Positions 15,511-51,012 of a DNA stretch of 64,000 nt are shown one piece after another. The DNA is taken from sequence record OQ721909; one strand, written 5' to 3'. Position 1 is the first letter of the stretch. Every line of letters starts with the position of its first letter. The translations under genes were made by a program, and so were the position numbers. The notes below the pieces were generated by a model. The model did not search any database. It worked only from the letters and a program-made list of their open reading frames with translations, and had not been told where the DNA came from. This DNA is from Escherichia phage vB_VIPECOOM01.

Positions 15511-16029
15511 TTAATAACCTCGGTCTTGACGAGCGAAGTTTTCAGCATTTTTCAGATAATAAAGTTTAAAAATTTCTTCAGCCGTAAGACCAAGACCTTG
15601 GAACATGTTCAGAACGAAATGAAGAATATCAATCATTTCGAATTTAATTTCCAACTGATCTTGCGGAGACAAATCAGTAATTAGAGTTTCACGGCGTTCA
15701 CCATGTTGAGCTTTCCAAGGCTTCCATACAGCAGATGCATCTTTTTCACCATTGCTCATACCGCCAAGAGAAGTTAGAAGTTCACGGAATTCATCATCAA
15801 TATAATCTTTCTGATTACGCAGCCAATCAACAACTTCACCTGCAGTAGCCAAATCATCAGGATGACGGTTATATTCAGGTTTATCTTTAGCTAAACGAAC
15901 TTGCAGAGATTTCTGCATATCAAGCATAACTTGCAGCGGGTCTTTTTCATCACCGAGAATATCCCAGTATTCATTTTGAGCTTTATCAGCGCCTTCGATC
16001 AATTGTGAACATTCATTAAAGTATGCCAT
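15511..16029 (-). CDS. 56: dCTP pyrophosphatase gp56 (MazG-like)
   Basis: 172 aa from ATG at 16029 (T4 gp56 171 aa); track ORF is N-terminally extended. Confidence 0.8.
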   Translation of the reverse strand: MAYFNECSQLIEGADKAQNEYWDILGDEKDPLQVMLDMQKSLQVRLAKDKPEYNRHPDDLATAGEVVDWLRNQKDYIDDEFRELLTSLGGMSNGEKDASAVWKPWKAQHGERRETLITDLSPQDQLEIKFEMIDILHFVLNMFQGLGLTAEEIFKLYYLKNAENFARQDRGY

Positions 16030-16100
16030 TATTTTTCCTTTCAATTCATGGATTAGTAGATTAATTATACAATAAATATATAAAGCAATAAGGAGGACAT

Positions 16101-16301
16101 ATGGTGCAAAAATTAATGGCACTTGTTAATGCCATCAAAGGTAATAAAAAACGTATAGCTTTTACTATTTCTGCTATGATAGGAATTTTACTTTGGAATT
16201 TTGTTTTATCGCCAGTTGCTATTGCTCATGGCGTTAGTATTCCAGTAATTACTCTTGATACATTCGTAGATTTAGCATTTGCTTTAGTTGGGTTAATTTA
16301 A
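16101..16301 (+). CDS. small two-helix membrane protein (plus strand)
   Basis: 66 aa, hydrophobic; AGGAGG SD 4 nt before ATG; fills the 56/61 gap where T4 carries segF; 3' end converges on gene 61. Confidence 0.45.
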   Translation: MVQKLMALVNAIKGNKKRIAFTISAMIGILLWNFVLSPVAIAHGVSIPVITLDTFVDLAFALVGLI

Positions 16302-17326
16302 ATCTTAGCATATTTAGATAGCCGCATTTTAGCCATCAACCCTTGGGCAATATTATTTTTCATATATTCCATAATTTGTTCAGGGGTTGCACCTTCCTTT
16401 CTAATCATATCATTAACATCTTTTGATTTCCAGGGAGATTTGTCCCAAAACATAACCCTTTCTCCTGCATCAACTAATTTAGTCATTCGTTTAATAGTGT
16501 CAGGGTGACGAGGTTCATTATCTAAAACCCATACACGTCTATCTTTAAATGGAACAATTTCTAGGTCTAATTGGCCACCCGTAATAGCTATACCATTTTC
16601 AATAAAAAGTGAATCTATAGGTCCTTCTAGAACATATACATCACCATCTTTAACCCGTTCGACACCATAGATTTTTGTTGCCTCAGGATAAGCTTTGATG
16701 GTGATATATTTTTGAGGAGCATCTTTCTTTAATGCACGTCCTTGAAAAGACTCAGCTTTTCCATTAGCATTATAAATTGGAATAACAAGACGAGGCTCAG
16801 GTATTTCCTTTTTATATGTTCCTGGTGCTATACTATTAACTAATTTAGGCCATTCGGTTGTAAACCAAAGATATTTCCATTTATCCTTTGGAATACAGCG
16901 AGCTTTTACATATTTTATAATTGGATGGTCTTCCGTCAGTTTATCTAATCTAATACATGACGGAAGAGATTTAATTATTTTCTTCTCAGGTTGTTTAGGA
17001 AGTTCTTTAGGTTTTTCTACTGGACGACTTTTACCTTTTTCTTTTCTTATTTCAAAGATATACTCACGATATAAATCAGGTTCAAACTCCTTTAAATATA
17101 TTCCGATTGGTGCATGATAGTTACAGTTATAACAATGAATATTTCCTTCATTATTATCACCATAATACCATCCACGGGCTTTATTTTGGTCGGTTTTTGA
17201 ATCTCCACAAACAGGGCATCTAAACCGCAATTTAAAAGTTGAACTATTATTTACTTGTGTGAATTTAGGTAAATGAGCCAATGCACGGTATGCAAACTCA
17301 TTATCAATCCAAGGTATTGATGACAT
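16298..17326 (-). CDS. 61: DNA primase gp61
   Basis: 342 aa as T4 gp61; zinc ribbon CPVCGDS...CYNC; ATG checked. Confidence 0.9.
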   Translation of the reverse strand: MSSIPWIDNEFAYRALAHLPKFTQVNNSSTFKLRFRCPVCGDSKTDQNKARGWYYGDNNEGNIHCYNCNYHAPIGIYLKEFEPDLYREYIFEIRKEKGKSRPVEKPKELPKQPEKKIIKSLPSCIRLDKLTEDHPIIKYVKARCIPKDKWKYLWFTTEWPKLVNSIAPGTYKKEIPEPRLVIPIYNANGKAESFQGRALKKDAPQKYITIKAYPEATKIYGVERVKDGDVYVLEGPIDSLFIENGIAITGGQLDLEIVPFKDRRVWVLDNEPRHPDTIKRMTKLVDAGERVMFWDKSPWKSKDVNDMIRKEGATPEQIMEYMKNNIAQGLMAKMRLSKYAKI

Positions 17327-20769: not shown

Positions 20770-21132
20770 TTAAAAGAATTTAAATTTTTTCTTTGACCTT
20801 TTATTAAATGCATCTTGTAGTTGCATTGTAATACATTTTTCTACATGAGGAGCTAACTCAGCTTTTCTTTCTTGGTCAAGAACAGCAAAGTCCATTATGA
20901 CTTTTCCATCAACCCAATCTAATTTTGTCACATACACAATGTGTGTAGAACCATCTTCTAGTTTAATGACAATCTCCTGGATAACATTTTCCATGGCAGA
21001 TTTAATTATCTTAAGAGATTCATTAAAAAGACGTTCTTTTCTTTCTTCTTCCCCCTCCGAAGAGGGGGATTCATCGATAATTTCTAGATTTAAATCTAAA
21101 TCATCTTTATTCATTAAATTCTTCCATATCAC
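20770..21132 (-). CDS. 40: gp40 head vertex assembly chaperone
   Basis: 120 aa between uvsX and 41. Confidence 0.55.
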   Translation of the reverse strand: MIWKNLMNKDDLDLNLEIIDESPSSEGEEERKERLFNESLKIIKSAMENVIQEIVIKLEDGSTHIVYVTKLDWVDGKVIMDFAVLDQERKAELAPHVEKCITMQLQDAFNKRSKKKFKFF

Positions 21133-22288
21133 TTAACTGATCTAGGTCAGTTTCTAAATCAGCTGCTGATTTACTTTTACTTTCTGGAGATTTAAATTTT
21201 TCAACCTTTGAGTTAATCAATTCATCAACTTCAGCTTCAACAATTTCATTACTATCAATAGCACCTAACTGATAAGCACGTTTAATAGCATCTCGGAATG
21301 GTTGATGCTTAAATAAAGGACCCCAGAATGTAGTACAGTTGGTATCTTTTGCACGCCAAGATTTTTCTTCGCGAATCATCTCGCCGGTTTCTTCGTCAAG
21401 AAATTCACGAGCATACCAGCCATTTTTAGGTTTTACCACAAATCCTAATTCAAGAGCCATATCTAACAATCCAGAATAAGGATCGATGCCACCGTCAAAT
21501 TTAACATCAATAAAGAATTTACTTTTTTCTTTAACGGTACGAGATTTTTCTACATTTAGAACAAATTGATACCCCTGAAGATCAGAACCATCTTTAATCT
21601 GGCGCTTACCGATAATGAATACAGTATCAGCCGAATACATTACGCCTGTACCACCTGTCATCACGGTTTTACTAAACATTTCAATTGTTTCAATTGTATG
21701 GTTAACCGCAACACACGGAATGTTTTTAATACTAAAATAAGGAGTAACAATACGGAATAATGACTTCAGCGATTTAGCACGAGTCATATCTGCCACAGAT
21801 TTTTCATTCAAGGCATCTTCCGTTTCTTTCTTAGAAGCCATATTACCGATTGAGTCGATGAATACAATAACTTTTTCACCGCGCTCAATAGCTTCAAGCT
21901 GATTCACCATATCAATTTTCAGTTGTTCAACTGACTGGATTGGTGTATGAATTACTCGTTCCGGGTCAACTCCCATGGATCGCAAATAAGCTGGAGTAAT
22001 ACCAAATTCGCTATCATAGAATAAACAAACCGCATCAGGATATTTGTTCAAATACGCCGCAACCATAGTCAAAGACATATTTGATTTAAAGTGTTTAGAA
22101 GGACCTGCAAAAATGGTTAAACCAGACTGCATACCGCCATCAATTGCACCGGAAATAGCAATATTAAGCATTGGGATTTTTGTACGGATTACATCCTTTT
22201 CATTAAAGAATTTAGATGTAGTCAGTTCAGCAGTCATTTTAGAAGTGGAAGCTTTAATCAAACGGGATTTTAAATCTGCAATAGACAT
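21107..22288 (-). CDS. uvsX: UvsX recombinase (RecA-like)
   Basis: 393 aa vs 391 aa in T4; RecA-fold; ATG checked. Confidence 0.9.
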   Translation of the reverse strand: MSIADLKSRLIKASTSKMTAELTTSKFFNEKDVIRTKIPMLNIAISGAIDGGMQSGLTIFAGPSKHFKSNMSLTMVAAYLNKYPDAVCLFYDSEFGITPAYLRSMGVDPERVIHTPIQSVEQLKIDMVNQLEAIERGEKVIVFIDSIGNMASKKETEDALNEKSVADMTRAKSLKSLFRIVTPYFSIKNIPCVAVNHTIETIEMFSKTVMTGGTGVMYSADTVFIIGKRQIKDGSDLQGYQFVLNVEKSRTVKEKSKFFIDVKFDGGIDPYSGLLDMALELGFVVKPKNGWYAREFLDEETGEMIREEKSWRAKDTNCTTFWGPLFKHQPFRDAIKRAYQLGAIDSNEIVEAEVDELINSKVEKFKSPESKSKSAADLETDLDQLSDMEEFNE

Positions 22289-22365
22289 TCATTTTTTCCA
22301 TAGGCATCATTATATTTTCCTCACTGGTTAAAGATAGAGTAATTATAACACAATAAATTTAGGCA

Positions 22366-23214
22366 TTAATCAACTGCTATTGGATGAATAGCATTAAACT
22401 TATGAAACGCTTCTGATTTTTCTTTGCGCGAAACACACATGCGAAGAACCTTTAATGGCTCGTCTTCTTCACCTAATGATTTTCGTTTTTCAATATTAGA
22501 TGTTTTCCAACGAGCTTGCTCTGGAAATTCTCTATTGATTTGCTCGAGCGCTCTATTATGTTTTGAATTACTACGAATTGAACTACATCCGCCAGGAGCC
22601 TGTGCTTTTCCGGATACAACCAGATATTTGAACAAAGCCAAATGCGGATAACCTTGATTAATTAAATTGAGAAATGCATACATATCTTCGCATAAATCAA
22701 TTTTTCCATACCCAATTTGTTCTGTTGTAAGTTTTCCGAGGTCATACCAGGTATTCGTGAATCCATATGAATTTTCACGATAATTACCCCAAGATGAAGT
22801 AATTTTAAAAATTGGTAGACGAGCATGGCCATGATAATACCCGCAATCCATAGCATCTTCCACGTATTGAATCAATTCATAGAACTGTTCACGGGTTAAT
22901 TGATTAATTTTATCTACGCAGCGACGATCATCTTTCTTTCGCATTGAACTCATACGAATAGTAGTATCATCATCGATCATCCAAATTCGTTGACCTGCAT
23001 ACATATCAGTAATTGCTTTACGAGTACCAGCAATTCCATTAACATCATCAGGAATAGTTATAATTTTAGCTCTAGACCCGTAAGCGTCATAATAAGCTTT
23101 TTCTTCGTGTTTACGTATTACAATATGAGGTTCATAATCAGATGGAAACATATCAAGGGCAGAAACTGCCCCTACGCGTTGATAGCTTGGAATTACGAAT
23201 TGAATCATTTCCAC
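22366..23214 (-). CDS. GT-A-type glycosyltransferase at the beta-gt locus (candidate beta-glucosyl-HMC alpha-glucosyltransferase)
   Basis: 282 aa with WMIDDDT (DXD) motif; T4 beta-gt is 351 aa. Confidence 0.55.
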   Translation of the reverse strand: MEMIQFVIPSYQRVGAVSALDMFPSDYEPHIVIRKHEEKAYYDAYGSRAKIITIPDDVNGIAGTRKAITDMYAGQRIWMIDDDTTIRMSSMRKKDDRRCVDKINQLTREQFYELIQYVEDAMDCGYYHGHARLPIFKITSSWGNYRENSYGFTNTWYDLGKLTTEQIGYGKIDLCEDMYAFLNLINQGYPHLALFKYLVVSGKAQAPGGCSSIRSNSKHNRALEQINREFPEQARWKTSNIEKRKSLGEEDEPLKVLRMCVSRKEKSEAFHKFNAIHPIAVD

Positions 23215-23945
23215 TCACCGTTATAATCTTTTTTCGCAATATGAGTTTCGCCAGTTTTCCACCAATGGTCAACCAAGTAAAAATGACGGGAATACACATG
23301 AAGACTTCCGACATTCCATATAATAGAACCTGCTTTATACTGACGAGTTGAATCACCTGCGTTCAAATCAGATACTAATTTATCTAGTACGTATTTTTGC
23401 CACGCATAATCATTACGGAATCCGAAGACCACGTCATTTGAGCGCATGTTAACTACTGCATTGACTTTCTTATCACGAATCAGGTACTGTACTGTATTAG
23501 TACACATGAAATCTGACATACCATCTTTATTGTAGTCAAACTGCATGGATGGACGAGTATAAATCATGATACCACGTCGAGAATCAGGATTTTGACCAAG
23601 TTCAGCTAAACACATATCATACTGGGCATAGTTATCTTCTGACCAGATGGCCCAACCATAATTCGAGTTAATTTCGCCTTTAGAAGATGCTACCTGTTGC
23701 CAAATCTTCGGTGTTTCACCTGGAATATCTTTAACAAACAAGCTTTGAGACTTATACCATTCAAGTTCACGCTGAATGTATTCATCATTAAGAGCGCCAA
23801 AAATAAAAGGTTCATCTGCTACAAATGATGCACCAATAATTTCAATAGTTTTAACACCAGTTTTATCAATTACGAAATCTTTTTCCTTTAATGCAATTCC
23901 CAAATGAAGACGGATTTCTTCAACTGTCATAGAGTCATTAATCAT
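23205..23945 (-). CDS. 42: dCMP hydroxymethylase gp42
   Basis: 246 aa as T4 gp42; thymidylate-synthase-like; ATG checked. Confidence 0.9.
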   Translation of the reverse strand: MINDSMTVEEIRLHLGIALKEKDFVIDKTGVKTIEIIGASFVADEPFIFGALNDEYIQRELEWYKSQSLFVKDIPGETPKIWQQVASSKGEINSNYGWAIWSEDNYAQYDMCLAELGQNPDSRRGIMIYTRPSMQFDYNKDGMSDFMCTNTVQYLIRDKKVNAVVNMRSNDVVFGFRNDYAWQKYVLDKLVSDLNAGDSTRQYKAGSIIWNVGSLHVYSRHFYLVDHWWKTGETHIAKKDYNGEWK

Positions 23946-23952
23946 TTAAACC

Positions 23953-24102
23953 TCAATTGATACATTCATATTTAACTTGTAACAGTAATAAACTCCACCC
24001 TATAATAAGCGTTGGAATCATACAAGGAACTGCTACGCTATAGTATATACTTATTATAATCATCAAGATTAAAAGCAATACTGCTAAAATTTTGCTTTTC
24101 AT
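23953..24102 (-). CDS. small hydrophobic peptide (49 aa), missing from the ORF track
   Basis: Hand translation MKSKILAVLLLILMIIISIYYSVAVPCMIPTLIIGWSLLLLQVKYECIN; ATGA overlap with imm stop. Confidence 0.35.
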   Translation of the reverse strand: MKSKILAVLLLILMIIISIYYSVAVPCMIPTLIIGWSLLLLQVKYECIN

Positions 24103-24350
24103 TCCTTCTCTCTGATGATAATTACTTGATTTGGCTGTGTTGACTTTTTAGTTTCACCCGCAATTGACCAAATAAAGGTAATAAACCAACCAATAATTGA
24201 CCAGTTAAACAGTAAAGATGTGAAAAAGATTCCTACTGTCGATTTTGACCCACGCATCAAGGCGATGAACCACGGAAGCATGTATATAATAATAGCCAAC
24301 ACACCTGAAACTAAAACCATAAAAATTGAACCTGCTACTAAAGTTTCCAT
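24099..24350 (-). CDS. imm: Imm superinfection immunity membrane protein
   Basis: 83 aa as T4 Imm, two hydrophobic helices, position between 42 and 43. Confidence 0.75.
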   Translation of the reverse strand: METLVAGSIFMVLVSGVLAIIIYMLPWFIALMRGSKSTVGIFFTSLLFNWSIIGWFITFIWSIAGETKKSTQPNQVIIIREKE

Positions 24351-24357
24351 GTTTTCC

Positions 24358-24738
24358 TCACTTAGTCAAATTTTTTACACATGAATTATAAGAATTCACT
24401 ACATACTCCATCGGAGCATTTTTACCAGTACGCCACTGGTAATTATTAGCCCAATTTGCCCAAAGCACGGCGCAGTAGTTTTCAATTTTTTCTTCGCGTG
24501 TAATTACATCCGAATTACGATATGCTTGAGCAGATTCATCTGGACGAATAGCTTCGTCAAAATTCGCCTGCATTTGTTCTACTGTCTGTTTTGGAGCTTC
24601 TTTATAACACTTAACATTAGGATTATAAAATTTGCTTGAACAGTTTACAATTTTTCCTACATCAGACTGATTTACTACTGGTCCTTGAGCTACACAACCA
24701 GTAAGACCCAATGCAATAACCAAAATAGCGATTTTCAT
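24358..24738 (-). CDS. lipoprotein (imm.1 position)
   Basis: 126 aa from ATG at 24738; lipobox LGLTGC; track extension is translated promoter/leader. Confidence 0.5.
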   Translation of the reverse strand: MKIAILVIALGLTGCVAQGPVVNQSDVGKIVNCSSKFYNPNVKCYKEAPKQTVEQMQANFDEAIRPDESAQAYRNSDVITREEKIENYCAVLWANWANNYQWRTGKNAPMEYVVNSYNSCVKNLTK

Positions 24739-24830
24739 TTCATTCTCCAAATCCGCATCAGTTGATAGTTGTATAGTACCATGGAAGAACAGAGATGTAA
24801 ACAGTTTTGTGAAAAATTTTTTAATGAATT
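24739..24830 (-). promoter_or_regulatory. conserved promoter-leader cassette, copy B
   Basis: AAAAATTTTTCACAAAACTGTTTAC, 18 nt, TACTAT, leader CAACTATCAACTGATGCGGATTTGGAGAATGAAATG. Confidence 0.55.
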
Positions 24831-24890
24831 CCGGAGGTCCAGAATCATCTATTTTTCCTAAGTATAGATTTATATTACTTGTATGAAAAA

Positions 24891-24906
24891 GGGACCCGGA
24901 GGTCCC
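24891..24906 (-). terminator. tetraloop hairpin after gene 43
   Basis: GGGACC-UCCG-GGUCCC, 14 nt after the gene 43 stop. Confidence 0.5.
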
Positions 24907-24919
24907 TAGATTTATTCTA

Positions 24920-27616
24920 TCAGCCAAACAGGAAGTCTAACGAAGCTTTTTCCTCATAGTCCATACCTGCCGATTCACACATACCCGCAAGCGGTTTAAC
25001 AAACGATTTTTGGAACAAAGTTGAGTAGTCAATCCAAGACAGTACATCAGAACGAATTTCTTTTGGAAGTTCCGTACCCGACGGCCAAGCAATACACTTG
25101 TCACCAAATGGATTTCCCTCACGTAATGGAAGAACCATTACCTTATTTCCATCCAAAATTGGAGCTACACCTAAACCACTAACAGCTCGACGATAAGTTA
25201 GCACCCCACGAATGTGGAACGGGCATTTAAATCCTGGCCAACCTTTATCGTCATATTTCGCTATATCGTTCGCGGTTTTTACTTCAGCAATAACTTTATA
25301 ATCAAGTTGACGATATTCTTTCTCAAAGTTCTTGTAGTATTCTTGGACAGACTCTTCACCTTCTTGAAGAATACGACGAATACTTTCTTCGAGAGCTTCT
25401 TGTACTGCTTTTGGTGTTGAACTCTGCTGAGTTTCCATACCCATGATTTTTAGATGTGGTTCAGCAAATCGCTTATCTTCCATATCATAAACGTTCAGAG
25501 CATAACGTTTTTTCGCTTTCCAAAATCCACCGACGCCCTTTGAACCAAGTGGAGGGCAAGAAATAGCTTCACGGTCCATATGCATCAGATGCTCGCGGTT
25601 ATTCATATAATCACATAACTCACGATATGCAACATCAATCATAGGTTCCATCTTTTTCTTACCAAACTGATTCATAAATTCAACTAAATCATTTTGTTCT
25701 TTAAAGCGGTCAAGACCTACTTTTTCAATAACTTTATCTACGCAGACATATACCGAATCAGTATCACCTGCTGCGATGAAATCTTCACCATCAGTTCCAC
25801 ATACTTTATTCAGATATTCATTAATTTTACGAGCAATCCACTGAATACCAACTTGACCAAAAATTGTGATAGCAGTAGCATTTCGCAAATCATAATAGCG
25901 GAAATGAATGTTACCAAGAGCACCATAAAGACTGTTAATAAGAATTTTACGGTTCAGCTGATTTGTGTTAGCAAGTGTAGCTGCTTTTTCACATTCTTCG
26001 ATCAGACTATTAAGAACAGATTCGGTGTAATTCGACAATTCGTTTAAGAAATCATCATTGAACTTAACATATCGTTCAACTTCTGGTTTAGTTGAGCAAG
26101 ACCCTGCACCTTTCATAATAATCTTTTTAATAGCTTCGGCATTCATTTCTTCAGCGAACATTTTCTTTTTCCAGTCTTTACGCTGGAAAAATACTTTAGC
26201 GATTTCCTTTGGAATGATACCTTCTTGATGCTTATCATACATCCATCCATTCGGAGAACAAGAATATTCATCACTTGGCTTAGGAGCTGTTCCTGCGATG
26301 TATTCATGAATTGGATGAACTTTAAACTGTCCACGAATAGTTTCAGGACTAATGTTAACCTGACGAATAATGCTAGGATACAGAGACGTCAAGTCAAAAC
26401 TCATAATGTATCGACGAGCAATCGGTTTAGGTTCAAATACAAATGCACCTGGAAAACTCTGTTTAACGTGCGAACCTTGTTGAGGAATAACCTTGTGTTC
26501 ACCTTTCAACGAGTTAAAAATAATAGCATCCCAAGTTTTAATAGGACTCATTACGCCAGAAAAAGGCATTTTAGCATAATAAGACATACTTAAAACTAGA
26601 TCGATAAATCCACGAATTTTATCAATTGCTTGAACTGATTCTACGTCAATGATGTTATAACTAATGTATCGTTGATGATTAGTCTCACGAAGTTTATTAA
26701 TAGGACCGTCATATGGTAATTTACCTTTTTTGGTTTCATGTTGAGCAACTGATTCCAAAGAGAACGATGGCAAATTAGTAAATGCGAATTTTTTGTACAA
26801 ATCTAAATAATCAAGAATAGATACGCCATCAATAGAATAAATTTCTTTGCTACCGTACATATTTTGAATTAGTTTAGATTTTACTCGACCGATTGGAGAG
26901 AAGCGTTTCATACTACGTTCACCGAGAACCATTTTAACACGATTCATGATATACGGAACGTCAAATCCCTCAATATTCCAACCGGTAAAAATAGCAGGTC
27001 GTTTCTGTTCCCAGAGATTAATATATTCCATGAGCATATCACGCTCATTATCAAATGGCATATAAATTACTCGGTCAAGAATTTCTTGAGGAACTTCATC
27101 ACCGCCTTCACAGTCAAGTTTAGCAGCTAACTTTGCATCCCATTTTGATACTGAACCGTACATTGAATTCAACAAATCAAAGACGTAAAAACGGTCGTCA
27201 ATTGAATCATAATGAGTGATAGCATCAATTTCATATTCTGCTTTCATTGGGTCAGGAAATTTATCGCCAGTAACCTCAATGTCACAGTTAGCTACACGAA
27301 CAAATTTTCGATCATAAACAATTTCTGAACCATATGTATCACTGATATAAGCGAGTTTAAAATCGTTCATACCGAGAGCTTCGAGACCGATGTCTTCCAT
27401 TCGTTTCATCCAATCTCGGGCATCTTTCATTGATGGAAATTTTTGAGGAGCGCAATTTTTACCATAAATGTCTTTGTATTTTGATTCTTCCTTACAGTGT
27501 CTAAACATAGTCGGAAGATATTCTACTTCACGAGTACGTTCCTTTCCGTTTTCATCAATATAACGTTCAACAATATTATTTCCGACTGTTTCGATAGAGA
27601 TATAAAATTCTTTCAT
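24920..27616 (-). CDS. 43: DNA polymerase gp43 (family B)
   Basis: 898 aa as T4 gp43; ATG checked; operator hairpin upstream. Confidence 0.95.
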   Translation of the reverse strand: MKEFYISIETVGNNIVERYIDENGKERTREVEYLPTMFRHCKEESKYKDIYGKNCAPQKFPSMKDARDWMKRMEDIGLEALGMNDFKLAYISDTYGSEIVYDRKFVRVANCDIEVTGDKFPDPMKAEYEIDAITHYDSIDDRFYVFDLLNSMYGSVSKWDAKLAAKLDCEGGDEVPQEILDRVIYMPFDNERDMLMEYINLWEQKRPAIFTGWNIEGFDVPYIMNRVKMVLGERSMKRFSPIGRVKSKLIQNMYGSKEIYSIDGVSILDYLDLYKKFAFTNLPSFSLESVAQHETKKGKLPYDGPINKLRETNHQRYISYNIIDVESVQAIDKIRGFIDLVLSMSYYAKMPFSGVMSPIKTWDAIIFNSLKGEHKVIPQQGSHVKQSFPGAFVFEPKPIARRYIMSFDLTSLYPSIIRQVNISPETIRGQFKVHPIHEYIAGTAPKPSDEYSCSPNGWMYDKHQEGIIPKEIAKVFFQRKDWKKKMFAEEMNAEAIKKIIMKGAGSCSTKPEVERYVKFNDDFLNELSNYTESVLNSLIEECEKAATLANTNQLNRKILINSLYGALGNIHFRYYDLRNATAITIFGQVGIQWIARKINEYLNKVCGTDGEDFIAAGDTDSVYVCVDKVIEKVGLDRFKEQNDLVEFMNQFGKKKMEPMIDVAYRELCDYMNNREHLMHMDREAISCPPLGSKGVGGFWKAKKRYALNVYDMEDKRFAEPHLKIMGMETQQSSTPKAVQEALEESIRRILQEGEESVQEYYKNFEKEYRQLDYKVIAEVKTANDIAKYDDKGWPGFKCPFHIRGVLTYRRAVSGLGVAPILDGNKVMVLPLREGNPFGDKCIAWPSGTELPKEIRSDVLSWIDYSTLFQKSFVKPLAGMCESAGMDYEEKASLDFLFG

Positions 27617-27694: not shown

Positions 27695-27958
27695 TTAAAT
27701 TAATACCATTTGTCGGTGAAAAATTGTTAATCCATCTGCATTAATTGACTTAACTACTGCAGTAAAATATTTTTGTTCAGGGTGAACTAATTTTTGAAAT
27801 TCTACCTGAAATTTTAGTTGGAGGTTTTCTGGTAAATCAAAAAGTGTTTCTGTTGCAGAAAGATTATATTTTTCTTTAAGAGACGCCATATATTCTTGTG
27901 GGCTTATAGCAGTCATATTAATTACCAATCGTATATTTGGGAACGAGTTTCCATTCAT
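27695..27958 (-). CDS. hypothetical small protein
   Basis: 87-aa ORF overlapping regA 3' end; likely shorter. Confidence 0.3.
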   Translation of the reverse strand: MNGNSFPNIRLVINMTAISPQEYMASLKEKYNLSATETLFDLPENLQLKFQVEFQKLVHPEQKYFTAVVKSINADGLTIFHRQMVLI

Positions 27959-28287: not shown

Positions 28288-28851
28288 TTACCATTCCAAT
28301 GCTAGTTTTTTGAGTTGTTTCTGTTCTTTTACGTTCTTAGTCACTTCTTTCAAAAAATCATCCGTGACTAAACCTTTTAGTTCCTTTAATACTAAAGGAA
28401 GTTTTCCATTTTTAGTAAGAATTGATTTATAGTTAATTGCATCATTTGTATTAACTTGATACCGCTTAGCAAGTAACTTAATAATCAATACTTCGGTAGA
28501 ATCTTCAACCAGTTTTGCCCATTTACCATATCTTTTACCCCGAGGAACAGCAGCCATCAGATAATTAAAATGGGCTTCATCGCTTAAACCTGATCCAATT
28601 AAATTCATAGCATATACAGCTGGCATGCACTCAGGAAATTGTGATAATGCATTCTCAACCATGTATTTTGAATAATCTTTTTGAGCAATAGAGCATTTAG
28701 TTTTATTATTGATAGCTCCAATTATTTCAAAAAATTCATTTTCAGCTTTTTCTTTAAAAGAATCTGCAGCAGATTGGACAGCTGTCCAATCTTTTGAATA
28801 CCAAGCAACTTGATGCTCGTTTAATTGAATATCATCTTCAAATAAGCTCAT
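28288..28851 (-). CDS. 62: clamp loader small subunit gp62
   Basis: 187 aa as T4 gp62. Confidence 0.85.
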
Positions 28852-28852
28852 A

Positions 28853-29827
28853 TCACTTCCACTGCATTTCGCATGCCAATTGAATGAAAAGATATGCTAA
28901 ATGTAATTCCGTATTAGCCGCAATTCCATGATACTGGTTATTTTCACCAACAATTTCATACATACGAATAATACTTTGCGGAGTTACGCGTGTATAGATT
29001 TCTTCAGCAAGTTTACCTACGAACCACGAATAATCAGCTGCATATTTTGGTGCTAAAGCTCTGAGTTGTTTAACATCTTTATTTTTGAGAGACTCAAGAA
29101 CATCATCAATAGCACCACGATCGTTAGTAACCAGTGATAAAATACCAGCATCCAAAACACCTTTAGATGAATAACTATCGAGCTCACCAATAGTTTTACG
29201 AAAATCAGGAAAATTCTTTTTAACCAAAGCTGCTACAACTTTCATATCAGCTATAGCAATTCCTTCATGCTTGCAGATTTCAGTCAATCGACGAATCATC
29301 TGCTTCATCATTTCAATTTTATCTTCATCGGTCGGTTGACCGAACGTAATAACTCGGCAGCGTGACTGAAGCGGTTTAATAATACCATCAATATTGTTAG
29401 CAGTAATAATAATACTACAGTTTGAACTATAAGCTTCCATAAAGGAACGAAGATGTCGTTGAGACTCTGCTAACCCTGAACGGTCAAATTCATCAATAAC
29501 GATTACTTTTTGACGACCATCAAATGAAGCTGCACTAGCAAAATTAGTCAAAGGACCGCGAACGAAATCAATTTTACAATCTGACCCATTCACAAACATC
29601 ATATCAGCATTTACATCATGACACAATGCTTTTGCTACGGTTGTTTTACCTGTTCCTGGAGAAGGAGAATGAAGAATAATATGTGGAATCTTACCTTTAC
29701 TTGTAATAGATTTAAAGGTTTCTTTATCAAAGGCGGGAAGAATACATTCATCGATAGTAGATGGACGATATTTCTGTTCAAGAATGTGTTCTTTTTCATT
29801 TACAGTAATCATAATTTCCTCATTCAA
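28853..29827 (-). CDS. 44: clamp loader ATPase gp44
   Basis: AAA+ Walker [11 protein letters not shown]; 324 aa. Confidence 0.9.
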
Positions 29828-29845
29828 GTTTTAGTGTAAATTATA

Positions 29846-29859
29846 AAGGGCCGAAGCCC
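29846..29859 (-). terminator. UUCG hairpin after gene 45
   Basis: GGGC-UUCG-GCCC motif between genes 45 and 44; coordinates approximate. Confidence 0.45.
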
Positions 29860-29863
29860 TTTA

Positions 29864-30550
29864 TTAAAAGTCGTGGGTAGAATCAGCTTCAAGAGCTACT
29901 ACATAATTCGCATGTTCACCTTCAAATTTAGCAGCACCTTGTTTACCTTTTGCCCAGAGCAGAAGTTTATAATTTCCTGGTTGCATTTTCATATTTGCCA
30001 TATTGATAATGAAATTAAATGTATTTTCACCATCATAATCACCAAGAGTCAAAGAATATTTAACACGGGTCAAAGCAGAATCTTCTACTTTATTAAAACC
30101 GTTAATTACGATTTTACCTTCTTTTACTGTGATAGCAATTGTATCAATCTGCAGACCACGAGATACACGCAACAGCTGTTGAAGGTCTTCAGCTTTAATT
30201 TCAGTAACAACAGATGCTACCGGGAATGGAATTGGTTTATTAGGAGCAACTACTGTACTCGGATCGGCTGCTGGCCAAAAAATTGTTGAACGAGCATCAG
30301 CAATTTTAATATTACCATCTTCTGACTGGGAAATTTCTGCATCATCATTAACTAGGGACAGAATACCGAGAAAACCGTTCAAATCGTAAATTGCTACATC
30401 AAAATCAATAGTGTCAGAAATATTTGCTTCTGCATAAGTTGTACCATTAACTGCGCGAGTCATAATAAATTGACCGGATTTAAGCATAATACCAGAGTTA
30501 ATAGTAGCGAAATTTTTAAGCAGAGCAGTAGTATCTTTAGACAGTTTCAT
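29864..30550 (-). CDS. 45: sliding clamp gp45
   Basis: 228 aa as T4 gp45; synteny. Confidence 0.9.
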   Translation of the reverse strand: MKLSKDTTALLKNFATINSGIMLKSGQFIMTRAVNGTTYAEANISDTIDFDVAIYDLNGFLGILSLVNDDAEISQSEDGNIKIADARSTIFWPAADPSTVVAPNKPIPFPVASVVTEIKAEDLQQLLRVSRGLQIDTIAITVKEGKIVINGFNKVEDSALTRVKYSLTLGDYDGENTFNFIINMANMKMQPGNYKLLLWAKGKQGAAKFEGEHANYVVALEADSTHDF

Positions 30551-34570: not shown

Positions 34571-35773
34571 TTATTTTGTAATAATGTCAAACTGTTCTTT
34601 AAAGCAGAAGCTTGAATCTTGATGCTGATACAAAAATTCATAAGCTTTTTCACGTTCACGGTCATAAAGAGCTCGGTCAGATGACAGTTCTTTAATACGT
34701 TCAAATGTTGATTCCATGTCATTTTCATCAAACCAAACGATACCGCTATCATGAGAAATTAATGGAGTATTATCAACACGGAATTTTAAATTTTCGCCAG
34801 TAGATTTCCAAAATACCGGAATTGTTCCACATGCACCAAGCTCGAGATGAGTATATTCTAAAGAACGCTGTAGATATTTTTTGTCCAACTTACTCAGCTG
34901 ATAACCAAATCCTGATTTACTCATGCGTTCAAGCATTTCGCTATTTACATAACGATCAAGAATTTGCGTTGGCAAATTAGGAGCAATTTTAATTTGGTCT
35001 ACTTGATGAAGACGATAATACTCGTATGGAATTCCTTTTTCTTTAATAGGAATGAACGCTGGAGAACGTTCCAGACCTTCCATAATAGTACTTAGTCCTG
35101 CAGGTTTAAGATGTTTTTCGTGAAAATCAAACATCTGATAAAAGCCTTTCCATGTAGTAGTACGACCAATCCAACGGTTGATATTCATGTTAATTTCAGA
35201 AACATCTTTCCAGTAAGTTGATCGAACCTTCGCAATATCCATAGGAGGCTGAAAGTTATATACGGTCGGTGCTTCTTCAATATCATCAAACAGAGAAACT
35301 GTTTCTGGATACCATTCTTTCATCAAAACTTTATTAAAGTCACCATTATCAGAATGGCTAAAAATAACATCAGCTCGACGAACAGTTTCTTCTAATCCCA
35401 AATTTCGGCGCAAAGAAAGAGAAGAATGGTCATGCTGATAAACTACAACACGAACCGAAGGTTTAATGTTATCAATAATTTTTTTATAGTTATTAATGGT
35501 GTCTTCTTCTACTGAAGTAGCAGGAACTGAATTGATAATTAGAATATCACAATCATTTACCAACTTAAGTGTTTTATCGTATTCTTTTGCCAATAAAACC
35601 GGAATTGAAAATGATTTATAATCATGCGCGCAATTACGGGTAAATGATTTATCTTTAGCATAAACCAAAGTTACTTCATGACCATTTTTAATAAACCAAT
35701 CACGCTGCTCAAGAGAAAATTTAGTTACACCGCAACCTTCAAGACCTCGAGCCATAAAAATACATACTTTCAT
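34571..35773 (-). CDS. a-gt: DNA alpha-glucosyltransferase
   Basis: 400 aa, near-identical by recall to T4 alpha-gt N-terminus (CIFMARGLEGCGVTKF). Confidence 0.9.
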   Translation of the reverse strand: MKVCIFMARGLEGCGVTKFSLEQRDWFIKNGHEVTLVYAKDKSFTRNCAHDYKSFSIPVLLAKEYDKTLKLVNDCDILIINSVPATSVEEDTINNYKKIIDNIKPSVRVVVYQHDHSSLSLRRNLGLEETVRRADVIFSHSDNGDFNKVLMKEWYPETVSLFDDIEEAPTVYNFQPPMDIAKVRSTYWKDVSEINMNINRWIGRTTTWKGFYQMFDFHEKHLKPAGLSTIMEGLERSPAFIPIKEKGIPYEYYRLHQVDQIKIAPNLPTQILDRYVNSEMLERMSKSGFGYQLSKLDKKYLQRSLEYTHLELGACGTIPVFWKSTGENLKFRVDNTPLISHDSGIVWFDENDMESTFERIKELSSDRALYDREREKAYEFLYQHQDSSFCFKEQFDIITK

Positions 35774-35797
35774 TTAATATCCTCATTGTTTTGGTTT

Positions 35798-35822
35798 ATT
35801 TTACCAAAAATTTATAAAGCAA
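35798..35822 (-). promoter_or_regulatory. MotA-dependent middle promoter for alpha-gt
   Basis: MotA box TTGCTTTA, 11-nt spacer, -10 TAAAAT. Confidence 0.5.
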
Positions 35823-35825
35823 TAT

Positions 35826-35841
35826 AGGAGCCTCGGCTCCT
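35826..35841 (-). terminator. hairpin upstream of the alpha-gt promoter
   Basis: Inverted repeat AGGAGCC/GGCTCCT. Confidence 0.45.
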
Positions 35842-36016
35842 ATCCGCATAATACGCCATACAGAGGCTCATTAGAGCTTCTAAATTTTATGCGCTTATAT
35901 GTTATAGTTCCTTCTGCTTTAGCTTTATCATGAGACGCTTTAAAGAGTCTCATCATTTCTACTTTAGAGGAACGAATTTTATTATAATCTGTTTCAGAAG
36001 TCTGGGTGTTCATCTT

Positions 36017-50292: not shown

Positions 50293-51012
50293 TTAGGATT
50301 CTTCTAAATGTCTTTTCTGAAAAGTTGATACCATACTACGATACGGTTCATTTGGATATCCGTGTTTTATAGCTTCCTTTGTAAATTTTCTCCATCCATA
50401 TTTAGTTTCTTTCCAAAGCTCGAATAATTCATCTTCATATTGCCATATAGTTAAATGAGAACGCTTTGCAGCTTTAATTCCATTAATATGCTTTTCTTTT
50501 ACTACAGGATTGCTTAGTTTCTTTTTAATAATATTACTAACTTTTCTAACAAAAGCTGGGTCCTTATATCGTTGTGAAGTTTTTATTGAAGTGTTTAATT
50601 TAGCTTCCGGCGTGGATGTGACCTCTTTCATCTTTTTCTTCATATGCTGTATATGATTAGGATTTTTCCATAAATTTATAGAATGCTTTTTGCATTTTAT
50701 CCTAGTTTCATCTGCAACCTTTCCTCCTTCACCCCCGTATGACAGGTTAACACAGTTTTTTCCATATTTCAATTTACCTGCCATGATATATAATATTTCA
50801 GCTTGTACCATTTTATCATAATTATCAAAAACTTCTAAAACCGTTTTTGATAATATGTGGTCATTTGACACTTTTACACGTTCTATATAATTTCCACTAC
50901 CAACATACGAATCATTGATGTTATTAGTTATATGTCGACCATAATAGTATTTCTTAATACCTGTCTTTAAATTTAATATTTCAGTTTTATAGATAGTAAA
51001 ATATTTTTTCAT
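50293..51012 (-). CDS. GIY-YIG-like (Seg-type) endonuclease candidate
   Basis: 239 aa; N-terminal IYK...GIKKYYYGRH...YVGSG resembles a GIY-YIG module; Lys-rich C-terminal half; ATGA overlap with upstream ATPase gene. Confidence 0.45.
   Translation of the reverse strand: MKKYFTIYKTEILNLKTGIKKYYYGRHITNNINDSYVGSGNYIERVKVSNDHILSKTVLEVFDNYDKMVQAEILYIMAGKLKYGKNCVNLSYGGEGGKVADETRIKCKKHSINLWKNPNHIQHMKKKMKEVTSTPEAKLNTSIKTSQRYKDPAFVRKVSNIIKKKLSNPVVKEKHINGIKAAKRSHLTIWQYEDELFELWKETKYGWRKFTKEAIKHGYPNEPYRSMVSTFQKRHLEES

Follow-up and report, generated by a model that had tools for sequence, protein, structure and literature searches.

The analyzed stretch of Escherichia phage vB_VIPECOOM01 DNA (64,000 nucleotides; hereafter, the window) contains, in the interval between uvsX and gene 42, an intact open reading frame on the minus strand (22366..23214) that encodes 282 aa when read from its GTG codon. 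Downstream, this slot is flanked by uvsX (21107..22288, minus strand; Pfam T4_UVSX_C, 4.7e-39, and RecA), and on its other side lies gene 42 (23205..23945, minus strand; Pfam Thymidylat_synt, 6.2e-16), which encodes the dCMP hydroxymethylase that makes the hmC precursor and is 96% identical to T4 gp42. In T4, the same slot holds segA together with the 351-aa beta-gt that the sequence-only reading had named for that phage. Here, unlike in T4, only 77 nt separate uvsX from the stop codon of the open reading frame, and segA is missing.

The third codon of the frame is an ATG at 23208, which overlaps the TGA stop codon of gene 42 as ATGA, i.e., by four bases. Because of this overlap, and because it agrees with the annotation of GenBank OQ721911.1, T2, T6, Solly, and EH2, the ATG at 23208 is almost certainly the true start, giving a protein of 280 aa (22366..23208), and we rejected the GTG at 23214 on the same grounds. 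The sequence-only reading had described a 282-aa protein with a WMIDDDT motif between uvsX and gene 42; the intact frame, its motif, and its position all hold, and only the length needs to be changed, likely to 280 aa. From the sequence, gene 42 and the downstream gene, hereafter ba-gt, appear to be translationally coupled. A 9-bp, GC-rich hairpin (TAGGGGCAGTTTCTGCCCTTG; 23154..23174, minus strand) lies just past the start, within codons 12-18 of ba-gt, and its DNA is the same in T2, T6, Solly, and EH2; its significance is doubtful, as such sites were found at chance rate. A promoter/terminator scan of 22000..24400 behaved much as it did on shuffled sequence (12 hits vs. 11.8 expected, and 1 vs. 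1.1), which allows no regulatory conclusion.

A T4-like alpha-glucosyltransferase gene (alpha-gt) had also been proposed at 34571..35773 (minus strand), and this assignment proved sound: the product matches Pfam AGT over its full length (2.4e-236) as well as PHROG 2888 (3.8e-222), and is 91% identical to the T4 enzyme across all 400 aa. Bases 1-64000 of OQ721911.1 (Escherichia phage vB_VIPECOOM03) equal the window base for base, and in that record the coding sequence at 22366..23208 (minus strand) is annotated as beta-glucosyl-HMC-alpha-glucosyltransferase and that at 34571..35773 as alpha-glucosyltransferase. According to its genome announcement (PMC10508110), vB_VIPECOOM03 belongs to Tequatrovirus and came from Philippine hospital wastewater.

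Several other features of the region were noted. The genes dam, segA, segF, and mobB are absent at their T4 positions (15511..17326, 22289..22365, and 35774..36016). When the whole genome was searched by tblastn, nothing was found with T4 Dam or MobB, and the sole match to SegA and SegF was a remote GIY-YIG homologue (50293..51012). An extra 73-aa open reading frame (27695..27916, minus strand) sits between gene 43 and regA; it matches Pfam PF25760 (Phage RB18 ORF43.1 protein; 1.5e-28) and is absent in T4, T2, and T6. At 24358..24927 (minus strand), the longest frame would give 189 aa from a TTG codon, far more than the 126 aa of the gene annotated at 24358..24738 (DUF5481, 5.5e-71), and translation of the additional upstream part is improbable.

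Family and Fold of the Transferase

To judge from sequence comparison, the ba-gt frame lies far beyond chance expectation, since PHROG 842, a family named beta-glucosyl-HMC-alpha-glucosyltransferase, matches its product over the full length (E = 1.9e-88) and a homologue is present in 688 phage records. The product also matches Pfam PF20691, TAGT (TET-associated glycosyltransferase), at 4.7e-9 and 36.9 bits (gathering cut-off, 27.5). This alignment runs from residue 5 to residue 209 in the 282-aa numbering and covers profile positions 2-205 of 205; it is thus a match to the whole domain, and its modest score reflects the breadth of the family that the profile describes. No Pfam family besides TAGT was detected in the protein, and NCBIfam holds no model for either transferase. 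Both matches are to glycosyltransferase families, as expected from the earlier reading. Within TAGT, the T-even enzymes form one branch, tied to hmC synthesis of the thymidylate-synthase type rather than to TET/JBP oxygenases.

Over 280 aa, the protein is 98% identical to its counterpart in T2 (AP018813) and 97% identical to that in T6 (AP018814), both of which occupy the same slot. Conversely, BLASTP found no detectable similarity to T4 beta-gt (best E = 3.4), and a tblastn search with T4 beta-gt across the complete 168.5-kb genome recovered no homologue (best E = 3.8), ruling out a beta-gt gene elsewhere. TAGT and alpha-gt are each present once in the complete genome. The proposal that this phage has the T2/T6 arrangement, with beta-gt replaced, is thereby upheld: it shares with the T2/T6 systems the uvsX-gene 42 slot, the length of 280 aa, 97-98% identity, the alpha-gt partner, and the absence of beta-gt.

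A sequence search of solved structures with the ba-gt protein gave nothing meaningful, the best match being to an RNA-binding protein (E = 0.76), and the fold was therefore tested with a predicted model. The model (mean pLDDT, 79.7; pTM, 0.81) consists of a single Rossmann-like alpha/beta/alpha domain whose only disordered loop spans residues 131-149, and its structural matches are solved GT-A/GT2 enzymes. The model thus indicates a GT-A fold, as the sequence-only reading had suggested from the motif, and this call agrees with a published AlphaFold3 analysis in which the T6 TAGT was modeled as GT-A, sister to GT2 (PMC13216743). In ATG numbering, the DXD motif of WMIDDDT (22963..22983, minus strand) comprises D79, D80, and D81, and directly follows the model strand formed by residues 74-78. 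When the protein was aligned with ten homologues, these three residues were invariant across all 11 sequences, at identities down to 30%. In the model they occupy the canonical DXD position of GT-A enzymes, with a putative role in binding metal and UDP. I6, P7, S8, Y9, and R11 are likewise invariant in this alignment; they belong to IPSYQR (23176..23193, minus strand), the loop after the first beta-strand (model strand 3-7), which by analogy with GT-A enzymes is predicted to bind the nucleotide.

Compared with GT2-type GT-A enzymes (WrtF, TarS/TarP, RmlT, and K4CP), the protein shares the fold, the DXD after the central beta-strand, and the N-terminal nucleotide-binding strand and loop, whereas sequence identity is only 9-15%, and the acceptor is a polysaccharide, teichoic acid, or lipid for those enzymes but presumably a sugar on duplex DNA for ba-gt. 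T4 beta-gt (Pfam PF09198) resembles it in other respects: the two share a genomic slot, and T4 beta-gt is, as ba-gt presumably is, an inverting enzyme that uses UDP-glucose to build a beta linkage on modified phage DNA. However, T4 beta-gt has a GT-B fold, as opposed to the GT-A fold of ba-gt (PMC13216743), there is no detectable sequence similarity between them, and the T4 enzyme acts on bare hmC while ba-gt would act on alpha-glucosyl-hmC.

Probable Second-Step Glucosylation and Its Likely Extent

In all likelihood, the gene encodes a beta-glucosyl-HMC-alpha-glucosyltransferase of the T2/T6 type (ba-gt, ggt, or TAGT), a second-step enzyme that yields gentiobiosyl-hmC. In the proposed pathway, gp42 would produce hm-dCMP, and replication would then incorporate hmC into the DNA. 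The alpha-gt product (34571..35773) would attach an alpha-linked glucose to hmC in DNA, creating the acceptor for ba-gt, which would in turn attach another glucose through a beta-1,6 bond to the first glucose of alpha-glucosyl-hmC. The ba-gt protein is presumably an inverting, metal-dependent UDP-glucose transferase that uses the DDD of its predicted GT-A fold. The phage DNA is thus predicted to contain alpha-glucosyl-hmC, gentiobiosyl-hmC, and some bare hmC; since no beta-gt is present in the genome, no beta-glucosyl-hmC is expected. This composition is inferred, and the reaction product is taken by analogy from orthologues that are 97-98% identical. The T2 and T6 genes for the enzyme were reportedly cloned by Winkler and Ruger in 1993.

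Published work on these orthologues is consistent with such a pathway. T6 from which ba-gt has been deleted carries only alpha-glucosyl-hmC in its DNA; in vitro, the Brig1 glycosylase degrades this DNA but not that of wild-type T6, and Brig1 immunity acts more strongly against the deletion phage (PMC11078745). Escape of T6 from Brig1 arises through mutations that inactivate alpha-gt, which shows that the first sugar is required for the second (PMC11078745). The glucose of gentiobiosyl-hmC cannot be removed by the deglucosylase BapA (PMC13160076), and T6 without ba-gt responds differently to both Brig1 and BapA (PMC11078745, PMC13160076). In Tequatrovirus phages of the Durham collection that encode alpha-GT and TAGT, LC-MS detected hm-dC, alpha-glucosyl-mdC, and alpha-gentiobiosyl-mdC, and the beta-glucosyl form was absent; the authors describe TAGT as syntenic with T4 beta-GT (PMC13390438). 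Among alpha-GT plus TAGT phages, Solly and EH2 had about two-thirds gentiobiosyl-mdC and about one-third hm-dC, again without the beta form (PMC13390438). For sibling phages, the nucleoside LC-MS suggested in the sequence-only reading is thus already available.

The extent of second glucosylation is not readable from sequence. We regard it as unlikely that the window's enzyme, although of the right family, is only weakly active as in T2, leaving DNA that is mostly alpha-mono-glucosylated with a few per cent of gentiobiosyl-hmC. The classical value for gentiobiosyl-hmC in T6 is about 72%, and the T2 and T6 enzymes are about 97% identical. The T2 gene is 98% identical to the one in the window, yet T2 is reported to contain only about 5% gentiobiosyl-hmC (PMC11078745, PMC13160076), and the Durham phages EL, BGP, and Geo are intermediate (1:2:2), so that the extent varies among near-identical enzymes (PMC13390438). 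The residues that set T2 apart argue against a similarly weak enzyme here: R11H and P251S are all that separates the T2 protein from that of Solly and EH2, both rich in gentiobiosyl-mdC, and the window's protein has R11 and P251. A second point is that dam is absent from this phage, as it is from those Durham phages in which gentiobiosyl-mdC makes up about two-thirds, unlike the intermediate group, which has a Dam-like gene (PMC13390438); this is a correlation only.

All 31 family-invariant positions are intact in the window's protein. It differs from the Solly/EH2 protein by five substitutions, of which T23S, E33K, R92K, and V101I fall at variable positions, and V31I is a conservative change from Val to Ile at the near-invariant V31. 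Because the invariant residues are kept, R11 and P251 are present, and dam is absent (the last being a correlation that offers no mechanism), this phage appears to lean toward a T6/Solly-like gentiobiosyl extent. The T2 protein, the only copy with His at the family-invariant Arg11, and carrying P251S as well, is the same in eight GenBank records, and R11 and P251 are found in the genes closest to that of T2, which share 99.3-99.4% nucleotide identity with it. It is conceivable, if on balance doubtful, that R11H alone causes the difference between T2 (about 5%) and T6 (about 72%) in gentiobiosyl-hmC; wild Tequatrovirus phages with the consensus protein, this one included, would then all be T6-like, with about two-thirds gentiobiosyl-hmC, and T2 would be a laboratory hypomorph, not a distinct natural type.

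Deposited T6 sequences also carry lesions in ba-gt. In AP018814/NC_054907, an in-frame 3-nt deletion shortens the invariant DDD by one Asp, and in MH550421, an amber codon replaces Gln10 and the annotated coding sequence begins at a later Met (261 aa). The ba-gt lesions thus differ between two T6 stocks sequenced independently, and it may be that laboratory stocks do not need the gene and that it is decaying there. The window's protein has neither T6 lesion, nor R11H and P251S of T2.

It is very improbable that the protein is instead a primary transferase acting on bare hmC, which would take over the function of beta-gt instead of carrying out the second step. Such a role would suit its location in the slot of T4 beta-gt, and many phages have a solitary TAGT homologue with neither alpha-GT nor beta-GT (PMC13216743). 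Against it stand the T6 genetics, in which escape from Brig1 comes through loss of alpha-gt and deletion of ba-gt leaves alpha-glucosyl-hmC (PMC11078745), as well as the failure to detect beta-glucosyl-mdC in alpha-GT plus TAGT phages (PMC13390438). In addition, about 25-33% of hmC is bare in such phages, and a primary enzyme should fill these sites. Scarcely credible is a different sugar or linkage, giving a disaccharide other than gentiobiose: the TAGT family is diverse and has relatives alongside other modification pathways (PMC13216743), but the product of the T2, T6, Solly, and EH2 enzymes is chemically established as gentiobiose, and with 97-98% identity to them a switch of donor or linkage is very unlikely.

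Frequency Among Phages and Predicted Consequences for Phage DNA

The sequence-only reading had framed the second-step glucosyltransferase as a departure from T4, a framing that turned out to be misleading. In the phage collection, 471 of the 688 records with a ba-gt homologue have one at 90% identity or more, whereas a T4-type beta-gt passes the same threshold in 29 records, most of them from T4 and its near derivatives. Given these counts, and in agreement with published work (PMC13216743), the arrangement seen in the window is the usual one in Tequatrovirus, with T4 as the exception. A further combination was observed in Escherichia phage vB_EcoM-G3F8 (MZ234036.1, about 28441..30362), where a TAGT 95% identical to that of the window adjoins a divergent beta-gt that is 55% identical to T4's. 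This pairing of beta-GT and TAGT occurs in some Escherichia phages of the same genus and raises the question of the acceptor linkage of TAGT there.

As a discovery, the finding carries little weight: the identity of the gene and the arrangement are already known, since publications cover the ba-gt gene together with its position, fold, and product, and the gene is named in OQ721911.1. Its value lies in what it predicts for a candidate therapeutic phage, whose DNA would carry alpha-glucosyl-hmC and gentiobiosyl-hmC, along with some bare hmC. Were alpha-gt to be lost, this phage, unlike T4, would have no beta-gt to fall back on. The predicted modification pattern would shape the sensitivity of the phage to Brig1-type glycosylases, to Brig3/BapA, to restriction of the GmrSD/BrxU type, and to McrBC.
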